From the NCBI RefSeq assembly GCF_965641715.1, contig NZ_OZ282453.1: a stretch of DNA of 64,000 bases. One strand, written 5' to 3'. Origin of the DNA: Escherichia coli. GTDB taxonomy: Bacteria; Pseudomonadota; Gammaproteobacteria; Enterobacterales; Enterobacteriaceae. The translations under genes and the position numbers were made by a program. Under the pieces are notes generated by a model that saw only the letters and a program-made list of their open reading frames with translations, made no database searches and was not told the origin of the DNA. Positions 1-44,186 of the stretch are shown in pieces (position 1 is the stretch's first letter; every line of letters begins with the position of its first letter).

Positions 1-5535
<5,535 letters not shown>

Positions 5536-8240: not shown

Positions 8241-11090
8241 TTGAAATACCTTGCTTCTTTTCGTACAACCCTGAAAGCCTCGCGCTACATGTTCAGAGCA
8301 TTGGCGTTAGTGCTCTGGCTGTTGATTGCTTTTTCATCCGTTTTTTACATCGTTAATGCGTTACATCAGCGAGAATCGGAAATTCGTCAGGAATTTAATC
8401 TGAGTTCCGATCAGGCTCAGCGCTTTATTCAACGCACCTCTGATGTGATGAAAGAGCTGAAGTACATCGCTGAAAATCGCTTATCGGCAGAAAACGGTGT
8501 GCTTTCCCCGCGTGGACGAGAAACGCAGGCGGATGTGCCTGCGTTTGAACCGCTGTTTGCCGACTCCGATTGTTCCGCAATGAGTAACACCTGGCGAGGT
8601 TCTCTGGAGTCATTGGCGTGGTTTATGCGCTACTGGCGCGATAATTTTTCTGCGGCTTACGATCTCAACCGGGTATTTTTAATCGGCAGCGATAACCTCT
8701 GCATGGCCAATTTCGGTCTGCGTGATATGCCAGTGGAACGCGATACCGCGTTGAAAGCGTTGCATGAACGCATCAATAAATATCGAAATGCACCACAAGA
8801 TGATAGCGGCAGTAACCTCTACTGGATCAGCGAAGGTCCGCGCCCTGGCGTCGGGTATTTTTACGCGTTGACGCCAGTTTATCTGGCGAACAGGTTGCAG
8901 GCGCTTTTGGGTGTCGAGCAGACCATCCGGATGGAGAATTTTTTCTTACCGGGTACGTTGCCGATGGGGGTTACCATTCTTGATGAAAATGGTCATACCC
9001 TGATTTCGCTTACCGGACCAGAAAGCAAAATTAAGGGCGATCCTCGCTGGATGCAGGAACGCTCCTGGTTTGGCTATACGGAAGGTTTCCGGGAGCTGGT
9101 GCTGAAGAAAAATCTGCCTCCCTCATCGCTAAGCATCGTTTATTCGGTGCCGGTTGATAAGGTGCTGGAACGCATTCGCATGTTGATCCTTAACGCAATT
9201 TTGCTGAATGTGCTTGCTGGAGCTGCATTGTTTACTCTCGCGCGGATGTACGAGCGGCGTATTTTCATTCCGGCGGAAAGCGATGCCCTGCGACTGGAAG
9301 AACATGAGCAGTTTAACCGCAAGATTGTCGCCTCCGCGCCAGTGGGTATCTGTATTTTGCGTACCGCAGATGGCGTCAATATTTTAAGTAACGAACTGGC
9401 GCATACCTATCTCAATATGCTTACGCATGAGGACCGCCAACGGCTGACACAAATTATCTGTGGGCAGCAGGTCAATTTTGTTGATGTCCTGACCAGCAAT
9501 AATACCAATCTGCAAATCAGCTTCGTCCATTCGCGCTATCGTAATGAAAACGTGGCCATTTGTGTGCTGGTGGATGTTTCTTCGCGCGTGAAGATGGAAG
9601 AGTCGTTGCAGGAGATGGCACAAGCAGCGGAACAGGCGAGCCAGTCAAAATCGATGTTCCTTGCCACCGTCAGTCATGAGCTGCGAACGCCGCTGTATGG
9701 CATTATCGGTAACCTGGATCTTTTGCAAACCAAAGAGTTACCGAAAGGCGTCGATCGTCTGGTGACGGCAATGAACAACTCTTCCAGCCTGTTGTTGAAA
9801 ATTATCAGCGATATTCTCGATTTCTCGAAGATTGAATCGGAACAGTTGAAGATCGAACCGCGTGAGTTTTCACCGCGTGAAGTGATGAACCACATCACCG
9901 CCAACTATTTACCGCTGGTGGTACGCAAGCAGTTAGGCTTGTACTGCTTTATTGAACCGGATGTGCCAGTGGCTTTAAATGGCGACCCGATGCGTTTACA
10001 GCAGGTCATCTCCAACCTGTTGAGTAACGCCATAAAATTCACCGATACCGGCTGTATAGTTTTGCATGTCCGCGCTGATGGCGATTATCTCTCTATCCGT
10101 GTTCGCGATACCGGCGTGGGGATTCCGGCGAAAGAAGTGGTGCGCTTGTTTGATCCCTTCTTCCAGGTCGGAACGGGCGTACAGCGAAACTTCCAGGGGA
10201 CCGGTCTGGGTCTGGCGATTTGTGAAAAACTGATCAGCATGATGGACGGCGACATCTCGGTAGATTCAGAACCGGGAATGGGCAGCCAGTTTACCGTGCG
10301 TATTCCGTTGTACGGCGCTCAGTACCCGCAGAAAAAAGGCGTGGAAGGGTTGAGTGGTAAACGCTGCTGGCTGGCGGTCCGCAATGCGTCGCTCTGTCAG
10401 TTCCTGGAAACCAGTTTGCAGCGCAGCGGCATCGTCGTTACAACATACGAAGGGCAGGAACCGACTCCCGAAGATGTGTTAATCACTGACGAGGTAGTGA
10501 GTAAAAAATGGCAGGGCAGAGCGGTAGTGACCTTCTGTCGTCGCCATATTGGTATTCCGCTGGAGAAAGCGCCAGGGGAGTGGGTACACAGTGTGGCTGC
10601 TCCGCATGAGCTACCGGCATTGTTGGCGCGTATTTATTTGATCGAGATGGAGAGCGACGATCCTGCTAACGCTCTGCCGTCGACGGACAAAGCGGTCAGC
10701 GATAATGACGATATGATGATTCTGGTCGTGGATGATCATCCGATTAACCGACGTCTGCTGGCAGATCAGTTGGGATCGTTGGGCTATCAATGTAAAACCG
10801 CGAATGATGGCGTCGATGCGCTTAATGTACTTAGCAAGAATCATATTGATATCGTGCTTAGCGACGTCAACATGCCAAATATGGATGGTTACCGCTTGAC
10901 GCAACGCATTCGTCAGTTGGGACTGACGTTGCCGGTAATTGGAGTAACGGCTAATGCGTTGGCTGAAGAGAAGCAGCGGTGTCTGGAGTCCGGTATGGAC
11001 AGCTGCCTGTCGAAGCCGGTAACGCTGGATGTGATAAAACAGACGCTGACGGTATATGCCGAGAGGGTCAGGAAATCGCGGGATTCGTAG
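8241..11090 (+). CDS. rcsC: Hybrid sensor histidine kinase RcsC
   Basis: 949-aa ORF, TTG start, MKYLASFRTTLKASRYMFRAL...; HisKA/HATPase and C-terminal receiver domain motifs; length matches RcsC. Confidence 0.95.
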   Translation: MKYLASFRTTLKASRYMFRALALVLWLLIAFSSVFYIVNALHQRESEIRQEFNLSSDQAQRFIQRTSDVMKELKYIAENRLSAENGVLSPRGRETQADVPAFEPLFADSDCSAMSNTWRGSLESLAWFMRYWRDNFSAAYDLNRVFLIGSDNLCMANFGLRDMPVERDTALKALHERINKYRNAPQDDSGSNLYWISEGPRPGVGYFYALTPVYLANRLQALLGVEQTIRMENFFLPGTLPMGVTILDENGHTLISLTGPESKIKGDPRWMQERSWFGYTEGFRELVLKKNLPPSSLSIVYSVPVDKVLERIRMLILNAILLNVLAGAALFTLARMYERRIFIPAESDALRLEEHEQFNRKIVASAPVGICILRTADGVNILSNELAHTYLNMLTHEDRQRLTQIICGQQVNFVDVLTSNNTNLQISFVHSRYRNENVAICVLVDVSSRVKMEESLQEMAQAAEQASQSKSMFLATVSHELRTPLYGIIGNLDLLQTKELPKGVDRLVTAMNNSSSLLLKIISDILDFSKIESEQLKIEPREFSPREVMNHITANYLPLVVRKQLGLYCFIEPDVPVALNGDPMRLQQVISNLLSNAIKFTDTGCIVLHVRADGDYLSIRVRDTGVGIPAKEVVRLFDPFFQVGTGVQRNFQGTGLGLAICEKLISMMDGDISVDSEPGMGSQFTVRIPLYGAQYPQKKGVEGLSGKRCWLAVRNASLCQFLETSLQRSGIVVTTYEGQEPTPEDVLITDEVVSKKWQGRAVVTFCRRHIGIPLEKAPGEWVHSVAAPHELPALLARIYLIEMESDDPANALPSTDKAVSDNDDMMILVVDDHPINRRLLADQLGSLGYQCKTANDGVDALNVLSKNHIDIVLSDVNMPNMDGYRLTQRIRQLGLTLPVIGVTANALAEEKQRCLESGMDSCLSKPVTLDVIKQTLTVYAERVRKSRDS

Positions 11091-11290
11091 GACGGATAAG
11101 GCGTTTACGCCGCATCCGGCATTCAGTGCAAATGCCAGATGCGACGCTGACGCGTCTTATCTGGCCTACTTTAATGTAATCTGTTGAAATAATGGGATTC
11201 GTAGGACGGATAAGGCGTTTACGCCGCATCCGGCAATCGGTGCAAATGCCAGATAAGACACTAACGCGTCTTATCTGGCCTACAGGTGAT
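11078..11290. repeat. REP/BIME elements, two direct copies of a ~114-bp unit
   Basis: GGGATTCGTAGGACGGATAAGGCGTTTACGCCGCATCCGGCA... occurs at 11080 and 11194; each unit holds a pair of inverted REP palindromes (GCCGGATGCGGCGT / GACGCGTCTTATCTGGCCTAC). Confidence 0.8.
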
Positions 11291-14940: not shown

Positions 14941-15033
14941 AAAAAAAACCGGATGCGAGGCATCCGGTTGAAATAGGGGTAAACAGACATTCAGAAATGA
15001 ATGACGGTAATAAATAAAGTTAATGATGATAGC
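14941..15033 (-). ncRNA. micF: MicF small regulatory RNA (antisense regulator of ompF), divergent from ompC
   Basis: Minus strand reads GCTATCATCATTAACTTTATTTATTACCGTCATTCATTTCTGAATGTCTGTTTACCCCTATTTCAACCGGATGCCTCGCATCCGG + U-run, which matches MicF as I recall it, ending in a terminator hairpin. Confidence 0.9.
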
Positions 15034-15188
15034 GGGAGTTATTCTAGTTGCGAGTGAAGGTTTTGTTTTGACATTCAGTGCTGTCAAATACTTAAGAATA
15101 AGTTATTGATTTTAACCTTGAATTATTATTGCTTGATGTTAGGTGCTTATTTCGCCATTCCGCAATAATCTTAAAAAGTTCCCTTGAA

Positions 15189-21368: not shown

Positions 21369-23027
<1,659 letters not shown>

Positions 23028-23028
23028 T

Positions 23029-23400
23029 GATGTGCCACATCCGGCAGGGTATGCCGGATGTGGCGTATGCTGATAAGACGCGTCAGCGTCGCATCAGGCA
23101 ACCGGCTCGGACGTTGGATGTCGGATGCGGCGTAACCGCCTTATCCGACCTGGCGGTTGCAGCACTTCACAGCGGTGTAGGCCTGATAAGACGCGCCAGC
23201 GTCGCATCAGGCAACCGGCTCGGGCGTTAGATGTCGGATGCGGCGTAACCGCCTTATCCGACCTGGCGGTTGCAGCACTTCACAACGGTGTAGGCCTGAT
23301 AAGACGCGCCAGCGTCGCATCAGGCAACCGGCCAGGGCGTTAGATGTCGGATGCGGCGTAACCGCTTTATCCAACCTACGGGGTGCCGCACTTCACAGCA
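23029..23400. repeat. REP hairpin plus tandem array of about three 113-bp BIME-like units
   Basis: Perfect 13-bp inverted repeat GCCACATCCGGCA/TGCCGGATGTGGC at 23033-23063. Unit TGATAAGACGCGCCAGCGTCGCATCAGGCAACCGGCTCGGGCGTTAGATGTCGGATGCGGCGTAACCGCCTTATCCGACCTGGCGGTTGCAGCACTTCACAACGGTGTAGGCC repeats at 23071, 23184 and 23297. Confidence 0.85.
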
Positions 23401-23402
23401 GT

Positions 23403-23891
23403 TTAGCGAACTACCGCGTTCTCAATCTTCTCTTCCGCCTTCCAGATGCGGTATTTCACATCCACATTGTCTGGCGTATACACCACGATCGGCAGCTTGC
23501 TGTTGTAACGCAGCATTCCGGTATCGCCGAGATATGCAGTGACAAATTTCTTCTCTTTCTTGCCATCCGGGCAGGCCATCATCGTGGAAACCGGCGAGCT
23601 AACTTTATCAAAGACATAATAATCATAGCCCCAGCCTTCCAGCGTTTTGCTTTCCAGCTTCCCACCGAGACGATGCAAATTGCAATCGACTTCCAGCGTC
23701 TGACCGATTAACAGTTCTACTTTCAGGGTAGATTCATCTTCTTGCGGGGTTAACTGAATCACCTGACGCTTCATGCCTTTTTCAGCTTGTGGATAAGGCG
23801 CGATTTTTTCCAGTGGCTGGACGCTCTCTGCCGCCCAGGCGGAAGTGGTGGCGAAAGCGGCAAACAATACTGCAGGTAGAATGGTCTTCAT
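23403..23891 (-). CDS. eco: Ecotin (periplasmic serine protease inhibitor)
   Basis: 162-aa [50 protein letters not shown]...; sequence recognised as ecotin. Confidence 0.95.
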
Positions 23892-24149
23892 TTTTTGCTT
23901 TCCTTCTTCATTTATAGGTTTGCACCGATGATGTCGCTGAAGGTTAACATATTCATCAGATTTATTAATTTGCTTTATGAATAACTTAAAGAATATTAAG
24001 ACAATTTTACCTGCTCTTTTAGTGTTAAATTCTGATGAGAGAGCAAACCAGCAGAAATATCTCTGGTGAATTAATCGCTATATAAATATATTTATAACCA
24101 TTTGAAATGTGAGCAAAAGCCCGTTTTTGCCACGCTTCCCGCCACTCTT

Positions 24150-24184
24150 TTGATCCTGCTACAGGTTTTACCTCGATCGGGGTA
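24150..24184 (+). promoter_or_regulatory. napF promoter elements: FNR-like site and NarP/NarL 7-2-7 site
   Basis: TTGATCCTGCTACA (24150-24163, FNR-like half sites) lies about 20 bp upstream of the centre of TACCTCG-AT-CGGGGTA (24169-24184, inverted heptamers). This spacing matches the described FNR/NarP architecture of napF. Confidence 0.6.
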
Positions 24185-24297
24185 TGCATCTTTGACACAT
24201 CCTTTAATATCTTAGCGGCTATAAAAATGGCTTATTAATTATGCGGTTTATTTGGTCGCTCTCAATTTTCAGAGCGCGTTAATGATGGAAGGTCAAT

Positions 24298-24792
24298 GTG
24301 AAGATTGATGCATCCCGTCGGGGCATACTCACTGGTCGCTGGCGCAAAGCCAGTAACGGTATCCGTCCGCCCTGGTCCGGTGATGAATCTCATTTTCTGA
24401 CCCATTGCACCCGCTGCGACGCCTGTATTAATGCTTGTGAAAACAACATCCTGCAACGCGGCGCGGGCGGCTATCCGAGCGTTAATTTCAAAAATAACGA
24501 GTGCAGCTTCTGTTACGCCTGCGCGCAGGCTTGCCCCGAATCGCTATTTTCTCCGCGCCACACCAGGGCCTGGGATTTGCAGTTCACCATTGGGGACGCG
24601 TGCCTGGCGTATCAGTCAGTTGAATGCCGCCGCTGTCAGGATAGCTGTGAGCCAATGGCAATTATCTTTCGCCCGACGCTCTCCGGGATCTACCAGCCGC
24701 AACTTAATAGCCAACTTTGCAACGGATGTGGAGCATGTGCAGCCAGCTGTCCGGTATCAGCCATAACTGCGGAGTATCTCCATGCACACTAA
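24298..24792 (+). CDS. napF: Ferredoxin-type protein NapF
   Basis: 164-aa ORF with GTG start; multiple CxxCxxC 4Fe-4S clusters. Confidence 0.93.
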   Translation: MKIDASRRGILTGRWRKASNGIRPPWSGDESHFLTHCTRCDACINACENNILQRGAGGYPSVNFKNNECSFCYACAQACPESLFSPRHTRAWDLQFTIGDACLAYQSVECRRCQDSCEPMAIIFRPTLSGIYQPQLNSQLCNGCGACAASCPVSAITAEYLHAH

Positions 24793-36496: not shown

Positions 36497-36595
36497 GCCG
36501 GATGCGGCGTGAACGCCTTATCCGGCCTACACAATCGTGTGAATTCAATAAATTGATCGATCCGCGTAGGCCTGATAAGCGTAGCGCATCAGGCA
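36497..36595. repeat. BIME (pair of inverted REP elements)
   Basis: GCCGGATGCGGCGTGAACGCCTTATCCGGCCTAC (36497-36530) and inverted partner GTAGGCCTGATAAGCGTAGCGCATCAGGC (36566-36594). Confidence 0.8.
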
Positions 36596-40307: not shown

Positions 40308-40384
40308 TGGTCGGCACGAGAGGATTTGAACCTCCGACCCCCGACACCCCATGACGGTGCGCTACCAGGCTGCGCTACGTGCCG
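40308..40384 (-). tRNA. proL: tRNA-Pro (anticodon GGG)
   Basis: Minus strand reads CGGCACGTAGCGCAGCCTGGTAGCGCACCGTCATGGGGTGTCGGGGGTCGGAGGTTCAAATCCTCTCGTGCCGACCA: cloverleaf with GGG anticodon and encoded CCA end. Confidence 0.95.
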
Positions 40385-43670: not shown

Positions 43671-43708
43671 GAATGCCAGATGCGGCGTGAACGCCTTATC
43701 TGGCCTGC
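43671..43708. repeat. REP element
   Basis: GAATGCCAGATGCGGCGTGAACGCCTTATCTGGCCTGC palindromic unit. Confidence 0.8.

Positions 43709-43793: not shown

Positions 43794-44186
<393 letters not shown>

Follow-up and report, generated by a model that had tools for sequence, protein, structure and literature searches.

The convergent genes mqo and eco are separated by a spacer that is, as judged from its sequence, a BIME-2-type REP array, a three-unit allele of the eco–mqo BIME-2 of Escherichia coli K-12 (REP161, six units). It lies in the window, the 64,000-nucleotide stretch of E. coli DNA (contig NZ_OZ282453.1) that was analysed here. The explanation as a whole, comprising the BIME-2 identity, the roles at the RNA and DNA levels and a stepwise expansion, is held with high confidence. 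The array is a well-formed BIME-2, and its locus had already been studied in E. coli K-12. Elements of this class have been known since the 1980s–90s, and the K-12 locus has been used for gyrase-cleavage mapping and is listed in a catalogue of bidirectional terminators.

Architecture and class of the array

The left flank of the array is mqo (malate:quinone oxidoreductase; 21381-23027, + strand, stop codon 23025-23027), an ORF of 548 aa that matches Pfam PF06039 (Mqo) with 795 bits and is annotated as mqo in the matching E. coli genomes. The right flank, convergent with mqo, is eco (ecotin; 23403-23891, - strand), an ORF of 162 aa matching PF03974 (Ecotin) with 172 bits. Because mqo ends at 23027 on the + strand and eco ends at 23403 on the - strand, the array occupies the 375-bp spacer between the two convergent genes, and the ORF list places it wholly outside genes, between the two stops. 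The initial annotation had proposed about three 113-bp units at this position, and the periodicity was confirmed. Tandem Repeats Finder gave a single array at 23070-23406 with 3.0 copies of 113 bp, 92% matches, 0% indels and a score of 569. An independent seed-and-extend search placed copies in register at 23070, 23183, and 23296, with identities to the first copy of 100, 96 and 86%. The unit starts proposed earlier (23071, 23184, and 23297) equal this computed register offset by one base, and the unit motif quoted with them, TGATAAGACGCG(T/C)CAGCGTCGCATCAGGCAACCGG, is seen directly in the letters. Compared with dinucleotide shuffles, the spacer folds with z values of -6.65 and -6.23 on the two strands, and none of 100 shuffles folded equally well. 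This both-strand folding and the occurrence of the same array at the same locus in other genomes exclude a chance origin of the repeat structure.

Palindromic units were assigned by their match to published REP consensus sequences (Y and Z2). In each 113-bp unit, an inverted Z2 palindromic unit is joined by a head-to-head linker of 20 nt (AACCGGCTCGGGCGTTAGAT) to a palindromic unit of the Y type, which is followed by a tail-to-tail linker of 23 nt. The order along the array is Z2(-) Y(+) Z2(-) Y(+) Z2(-) Y(+). The Z2 of the first unit (23064-23099, - strand; fold of -15.7 kcal/mol) departs from the consensus at 7 of 36 positions, every one of them in the tail. Here the GTAGGC tail has decayed, and in the alignment GTATG-C replaces GTAGGCC by one substitution and one deletion. 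The head-to-head linker AACCGGCTCGGACGTTGGAT (23100-23119) and the Y-type unit (23120-23153, + strand) follow, and the tail-to-tail linker (23154-23176) carries, together with the Y bases 23149-23153, the lineage-specific variant CCTGGCGGTTGC (23149-23160). The second unit is composed of Z2 (23177-23212, - strand), the head-to-head linker (23213-23232), Y (23233-23266, + strand) and the tail-to-tail linker (23267-23289), with CCTGGCGGTTGC again at 23262-23273, beginning in the preceding Y tail. The third unit contains Z2 (23290-23325, - strand), a head-to-head linker with the CCAGG variant (23326-23345), Y (23346-23379, + strand) and a terminal 23-nt linker (23380-23402), the remainder of the last unit up to the eco stop. 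The Z2 of units 2 and 3 reads GTAGGCCTGATAAGACGCGCCAGCGTCGCATCAGGC and has no mismatch to the 36 consensus positions, and each of these two copies contains a natural target of IS621 on the - strand (23177-23187 and 23290-23300). The Y-type units, consisting of the Y variant GTCGGATGCGGCGTAACCGCCTTATCCGAC plus the tail, have 6 mismatches to the 34 positions of the Y consensus. The sequence GCAACCGGCCAGG at 23324-23336, in the linker region of unit 3, and the tail-to-tail variant CCTGGCGGTTGC are mutually complementary.

The tetranucleotide GTAG/CTAC is present in three of the six palindromic units, namely the Z2 of units 2 and 3 and the Y of unit 3, where CTAC is kept at 23376-23379. It is altered in the other three, with GTATG in the Z2 of unit 1 and a tail of CTGG for CTAC in the Y of units 1 and 2. 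GTAG at the foot of the palindrome is needed for binding and cleavage by TnpA_REP (Ton-Hoang 2012, PMC3333891), and three palindromic units without the required tetranucleotide speak against a mobilisation step.

As expected of REPs, which are imperfect palindromes of 30-40 nt, all palindromic units fold on both strands into a stem of 7-8 bp plus 4-5 bp split by a mismatch (-15 to -21 kcal/mol). In the Y of unit 3, one position of the stem is limited to a G·U pair on the - strand. A comparison of 24 distinct units taken from nine genomes found 98.1% of the stem cells paired, versus 26-42% in slid controls. Covariation of the stems in these 24 units was not significant, with one compensatory change (C-G to U-A) and 70 of 500 shuffles reaching the observed score, because the units are 95% identical.

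BIME-2 elements consist of z2 and y REPs in inverse orientation with short linkers, in tandem copies that are conserved within a locus and variable in number between strains (Ton-Hoang 2012, PMC3333891). The BIME-type label that had been given to the array is thus correct and was sharpened to BIME-2 by the alternation of Z2 with Y palindromic units. With the BIME-2 family (Gilson, Bachellier, Hofnung; PMC3333891) the array shares alternating inverted y and z2, short linkers, polymorphic tandem copies and near-identical units, and there is no architectural difference. BIME-2 linkers are of the named S, s, l or r types, and those of the array measure 20 and 23 nt.

The claim that the array binds IHF was not borne out, and it is the only part of the initial interpretation that fails: the L linker of BIME-1 is what binds IHF, not BIME-2. 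No match to the IHF consensus WATCAANNNNTTR with up to one mismatch occurs in 23029-23402. As a positive control, the BIME-1-like element in the window (36497-36594, with Y at 36497-36530, a linker and Z1 at 36566-36594) has two overlapping one-mismatch sites at 36543-36558, in its linker. An assignment of the array as a BIME-1/RIP-type IHF-binding element is therefore highly improbable, and apart from the general statement that some BIMEs bind IHF (PMC3333891) nothing further favours it. In BIME-1, which is found as a single copy, a long L linker containing an IHF site separates Y from Z1 (PMC3333891). The Y palindromic unit and the position at gene 3' ends are common to the array and to BIME-1/RIP/RIB, but the array is tandem, its Z units are Z2 with no Z1 among them, and it has linkers of 20 and 23 nt in place of an L linker with an IHF site.

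On the eco-sense (-) strand, the Rfam family RF02564 (naRNA4/CssrE) matches the array three times above its gathering score of 59.5, at 23068-23150 (61.9 bits), 23180-23263 (77.4 bits) and 23293-23376 (66.1 bits). These matches, and the original report that naRNA4 is an RNA derived from the six-unit REP325, would be in line with units that are genes for naRNA4-like nucleoid-associated ncRNAs acting with HU to condense the chromosome. However, the RF02564 model is that of a Y-linker-Z2 pair and will therefore be matched by any BIME-2 unit. A second BIME-2 in the window (11087-11283 by consensus matching) also matches RF02564, at 11090-11280. In addition, no promoter-like site is present in or near the array, a consensus scan finding no sigma-70 promoter in 22500-24100, and the role of REP325 in nucleoid condensation is disputed, with no measurable nucleoid compaction. 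The array resembles REP325/naRNA4 (yjdM–yjdN) in its tandem Y-linker-Z2 pairs, but the head-to-head linker of REP325 is 13 nt versus 20 nt here (a 6- to 7-nt insertion in the Rfam alignments), and REP325 lies inside an operon whereas the mqo–eco array lies between convergent genes. Dedicated naRNA genes are thus very unlikely on the sequence, and the RF02564 matches are read as indicating a BIME-2 unit.

Consensus matching assigned further palindromic units at 43675-43708, besides those of the second BIME-2 and the BIME-1-like element. A tblastn search of the window for a RAYT gene, a weak test given its approximate YafM query, found none (best E-value 0.16). The mqo–eco array is a dispersed REP copy, not a REPtron.

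The leader hairpin and the K-12 orthologue

A perfect 13-bp hairpin had been noted after the mqo stop, and an inverted-repeat search confirmed it at 23034-23064 (arms 23034-23046 and 23052-23064, 5-nt loop), beginning 6 nt past the stop codon. As RNA of the + strand the stem lengthens to 17 bp (23030-23068, from 3 nt past the mqo stop; -29.8 kcal/mol), and on the - strand it comprises 13 bp (-27.2 kcal/mol). The folding z values of the hairpin are -5.5 and -6.9 on the two strands. Stable REP hairpins within ~15 nt of a stop codon reportedly stall terminating ribosomes and lower the expression of the upstream gene. The leader hairpin, located 3-6 nt past the mqo stop, would presumably qualify for this effect. 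The hairpin is a conserved single-copy feature specific to this locus: of 5426 E. coli genomes, 5414 have it, in 5386 it is at least 95% identical, and the median is one place per genome. The 15-nt TGCCGGATGTGGCGT (23052-23066), which comprises the 3' arm and the next two bases, matches the head consensus of the Y unit at 14 of 15 positions, suggesting that the hairpin may be a palindromised Y head.

A canonical intrinsic bidirectional terminator was considered for the leader hairpin and rejected. The stem is present but lacks a U tract, and a consensus scan called neither the hairpin nor any other intrinsic terminator in 22500-24100. The K-12 version likewise has only 2 A and 2 U in its 8-nt flanks (Table 16, 2026 preprint).

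The same Table 16, which draws on an earlier transcript-end screen, lists as entry 365 the K-12 segment 2305063-2305108, flagged 'REP161, Convergent'. The entry is a bidirectional terminator at which the convergent eco and mqo transcripts overlap by 46 nt, and its sequence is the K-12 version of the leader hairpin. The leader hairpin is the orthologue of this K-12 eco:mqo bidirectional terminator. The K-12 mqo CDS has its end at 2305108, which means that both transcripts have their 3' ends at the hairpin and that the eco transcript has to run through the array from one side to the other. The published map of transcript overlap thus supports a 3'-end role of the kind first suggested for the array, in termination and mRNA stability between convergent genes. 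The K-12 3' ends mapped at the hairpin could instead reflect exonuclease trimming and not termination. The RefSeq feature table of NC_000913.3 has no repeat feature at eco–mqo, so the name REP161 is taken from the table of the preprint only.

The K-12 eco–mqo BIME-2 lies at the same convergent mqo/eco locus, with yojI upstream and yojO/napF beyond eco. It has the common leader hairpin, the 113-nt unit, the Z2–linker–Y–linker order and the 107-nt last unit, and in units 1 and 2 of the window the Y cores do not differ from their counterparts in K-12 units 2 and 4. The two arrays differ in the number of units, with three in the window and six in K-12. They also differ in the hairpin, which has a 13-bp stem and a loop G in the window, whereas the K-12 stem is perfect over 15 bp and the loop base is T. 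In the internal tail-to-tail linkers, CCTACGGGGTGG of K-12 is changed to CCTGGCGGTTGC by five clustered substitutions that remove CTAC. Finally, one head-to-head linker in the window has CCAGG, unlike K-12, and the genes on either side share only 93–96% identity with their K-12 counterparts.

Unit number at the locus across E. coli

A 2-kb query consisting of the flanks only was compared with 5426 complete E. coli genomes, of which 5421 matched. Units were then derived from the implied spacer length in 59 evenly spaced E. coli genomes, one further genome being split by an insertion. The locus contained one unit in 40 genomes, three units in one, four in three, five in two, six in 11 (K-12 among them) and seven in two; 68% of the sampled genomes thus carry a single unit. 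Two-unit alleles were found in a separate genome sample. The mqo–eco spacer lengths of 149, 262, 375, 488-490, 714 and 829 bp correspond to one to seven units of 113 nt each. The variation in copy number between strains that had been anticipated for this array therefore holds at the mqo–eco locus. An independent count fits the sampled distribution, as a three-unit query aligns in one joined place in 3635 of 5425 genomes (67%). In nine arrays compared base by base, every unit is exactly 113 nt apart from the last, which is 107 nt, and the leader is common to all. In the window, this shortened last unit ends at the eco stop.

Identical units occur within single arrays, with unit 2 equal to unit 4 in K-12, and unit 2 equal to unit 5 and unit 3 equal to unit 6 in JX21CE33. 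This indicates block duplication, by unequal recombination or by slippage in register. From the alleles of one to seven units and the duplicated blocks, it is proposed that the array grows and shrinks in exact 113-bp steps via these processes. The head-to-head linker with the adjoining unit heads was found at a median of one place per E. coli genome (maximum four) and is locus-specific in this species, whereas a query containing the array was found at a median of 13 places. This difference shows that the palindromic units occur genome-wide and that the 113-bp unit is a local amplification. The palindromic units themselves are members of the REP family that is spread over the genome and mobilised by TnpA_REP, a REP-associated transposase (RAYT).

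The same alleles bear on the ORFs in the array, which lie at 23027-23230, 23125-23343 and 23238-23711 on the + strand and at 23094-23207 and 23207-23374 on the - strand. These ORFs, which occur on both strands and are 37 to 157 aa long, had been regarded as artefactual, and this judgement stands: no Pfam family matches any of them, and the eight E. coli RefSeq records checked show no annotated CDS in the spacer. Moreover, 113 nt is not a multiple of three, so the frame shifts with each gain or loss of a unit and the alleles of one to seven units would destroy or remake the ORFs, and the 157-aa ORF is mostly antisense to eco. That they encode real small proteins has a negligible probability. 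Annotations should mark the spacer as a REP/BIME-2 repeat region and call no genes from its internal ORFs, and RF02564 matches at the locus should be entered as 'BIME-2 unit' and not taken as evidence for an sRNA gene.

The locus in the window is not typical of E. coli, as far as sequence identity indicates. Its 2-kb flanks are 95.3-96.4% identical to the E. coli genomes, with none of the 5421 matched genomes above 96.4%, and the 3' half of mqo is 93.3% identical to K-12, giving a range of 93–96% for the flanks. The closest relative appears to be Escherichia sp. E1V33, whose flanks reach 98.2% identity to the window on the mqo side and 96.8% on the eco side. E1V33 was the only species-representative genome with the linker variant specific to the window, and its array likewise has three units. 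On this evidence the window was assigned to a non-coli Escherichia lineage near E1V33.

Proposed roles of the array

The likeliest roles of the array would be those of a two-way block at transcript 3' ends, a gyrase site and a recombination-prone repeat, every functional step proposed for the window being carried over from E. coli K-12. Both convergent transcripts would enter palindromes able to fold on either strand. As the 3' ends of both K-12 transcripts map to the leader hairpin, the hairpin would define both ends, and the eco mRNA would carry the whole array as its 3' UTR. The hairpins of the palindromic units may act as partial terminators and as barriers to 3'-exonucleases, by analogy with the BIME-2 REP325, for which others have described a partly Rho-dependent termination or attenuation, a protected upstream mRNA and truncated transcripts that form a ladder. 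Where REPs lie between convergent genes, both genes tend to be expressed more highly. In genome-wide data, no association is seen between REPs at transcript ends and longer mRNA half-lives.

At the DNA level, the gyrase action claimed for the array is documented at the orthologous K-12 locus. The gyrase list of Sutormin et al. 2019 contains the entry 'BIMEs2 2308874-2309528, 654 bp, eco>-<mqo', with 11 cleavage sites with ciprofloxacin, 7 with rifampicin + ciprofloxacin, 2 with microcin B17 and 5 with oxolinic acid. For the same K-12 element it notes 'Espeli, Boccard 1997: 6 cuts'. The study also reports that y REPs are cleaved by gyrase more than z2 and that the BIME-2 signal rises under a transcription block. 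Given the identical Y cores at the K-12 orthologue, the Y units of the window would be gyrase cleavage sites that are independent of transcription and lie between converging polymerases. Six cuts for the six Y units of K-12 would predict three in the window.

It is possible, although we regard it as the less likely reading, that the extra units have no function for the cell, being selfish or neutral repeats produced by REP spread and local slippage, and that what counts is the single-copy hairpin with no more than one Z2–Y pair. The copy number varies freely from one to seven, 40 of the 59 sampled genomes have one unit, and the units of the window and of its closest relative follow different, scrambled orders. 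One strain has no leader hairpin and another has IS621 inside the array. This tolerance of deletion and insertion, together with the one-unit majority, indicates that the units beyond one, and even the hairpin, are dispensable. The half-life data cited above, which reveal no general REP effect, point in the same direction. On the other hand, every array that was examined keeps at least one unit, and a match to the flanks plus array was found in 5421 of 5426 genomes. The K-12 array is cleaved by gyrase at many sites in a transcription-independent manner, and deletion of REP325 alters the expression of neighbouring genes. As regards the first unit, this reading is compatible with the preferred explanation of a functional BIME-2, and the two differ only on whether the number of units has a phenotype.

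A further proposal, which we consider doubtful, is that the number of units (one to seven across Escherichia) is a heritable dial of eco and mqo expression, with CCTGGCGGTTGC and GCAACCGGCCAGG arising in the lineage of the window by templated mutation and locking the units. If such a dial existed, the unit number would set the length of the eco 3' UTR, the hairpin load and the number of gyrase sites between the convergent genes. If the locking held, the complementary CCTGGCGGTTGC and GCAACCGGCCAGG, produced by quasi-palindrome mutation, would add a long-range helix around Z2. The same variants would remove the GTAG/CTAC signal on which the REP transposase depends and thereby 'lock' the units in place. 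In practical terms, the locus is a length-polymorphic marker in 113-bp steps and a natural target of IS621.

Relationship of the mqo–eco array to other Escherichia

The regions flanking the array of three tandem 113-bp BIME-2 units in the mqo–eco spacer were compared, over positions 22028-24402, with the 5421 complete genomes of E. coli that match them. Identity lay between 95.3 and 96.4%, with none above, and the 3' half of mqo shares 93.3% identity with K-12. Among the genomes found, an unclassified one, Escherichia sp. E1V33, comes closest, with 98.2% and 96.8% identity on the two flanks. Judged by these flanks, the window is atypical for E. coli. E1V33 and the window (23070-23402) each carry three units, but the unit order is permuted: unit 1 of the window is identical to unit 3 of E1V33, and the third window unit is identical in its 5' part (CCAGG linker) to unit 1 of E1V33. 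The first Z2 of E1V33 retains an intact GTAGGC tail.

Five clustered substitutions distinguish the internal tail-to-tail linkers of the window array (23149-23160 and 23262-23273) from those of E. coli; they change CCTACGGGGTGG to CCTGGCGGTTGC and abolish the CTAC signal used by TnpA_REP. The clustering suggests that the variant may have arisen by a templated (quasi-palindrome) mutation. The variant CCTGGCGGTTGC is also complementary to a lineage-specific variant of the head-to-head linker, GCAACCGGCCAGG, at 23324-23336. In the predicted fold, the two linker variants together form an extra long-range helix of about 12 bp around Z2, with predicted folding energies of -41.3/-42.1 kcal/mol for the window variants as compared with -35.5/-30.1 kcal/mol for the K-12-type sequence.

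Leader hairpin and IS621 at orthologous loci

The hairpin that follows the mqo stop codon, whose K-12 orthologue is listed as the bidirectional terminator of eco and mqo, is missing in E. coli RMDEC465 (NZ_CM177019.1), where mqo ends at 999, eco starts from 1460 and the array has four units. The loss is a clean 28-nt deletion bounded by two GATGTG direct repeats, by which TGATGTG[...]GATGTGGCG became TGATGTGGCG. At least one natural isolate can therefore do without this 'bidirectional terminator' hairpin. In two other strains (L004 and L007), the 3' arm of the hairpin has a GG insertion.

IS621 is a bridge-RNA recombinase element of the IS110 family. In E. coli 2017-02-2CC (NZ_AP027764.1), it interrupts the orthologous array 3' of the third unit (2233-4000 of that locus, transposase CDS 2717-3697), with the junctions ...GGTGTAG/ATACTG... 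and ...ATAATACA/AGGCCTGATAAG. The insertion point is the Z2 tail GTAGGCCTGAT, which on the opposite strand reads ATCAGGCCTAC, published as the natural target of IS621. This target occurs at three positions on the minus strand of the window, 23177, 23290 and 36566.

Other repeats and landmarks of the window

A second BIME-2 at 11087-11283, presumably between rcsB and rcsC as judged by synteny with K-12, consists of two Y–Z2 units with a period of 114 and a 13-nt head-to-head linker, and gives two plus-strand matches to Rfam naRNA4 (77.5 and 73.7 bits). In the BIME-1-like element at 36497-36594, a perfect Y unit (36497-36530) is separated from a perfect Z1 unit (36566-36594) by a 35-nt linker, which holds two overlapping matches to the IHF consensus with one mismatch each (36543-36558). 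At 43675-43708 lies a solitary palindromic unit of the Y type, with three consensus mismatches and the tail CCTGC.

With Rfam and ARAGORN, MicF RNA (14941-15034, 116.8 bits), tRNA-Pro with anticodon GGG (40308-40384) and the ribosomal protein L25 leader (44100-44125) were detected, all on the minus strand; these are ordinary landmarks, consistent with the ompC–nap region of K-12 read in the opposite direction. A minus-strand ORF of 57 aa (24025-24198), 134 nt past the eco start, is a candidate for the small protein YojO (165 nt), which is annotated at this position, between eco and napF, in E. coli RefSeq records.
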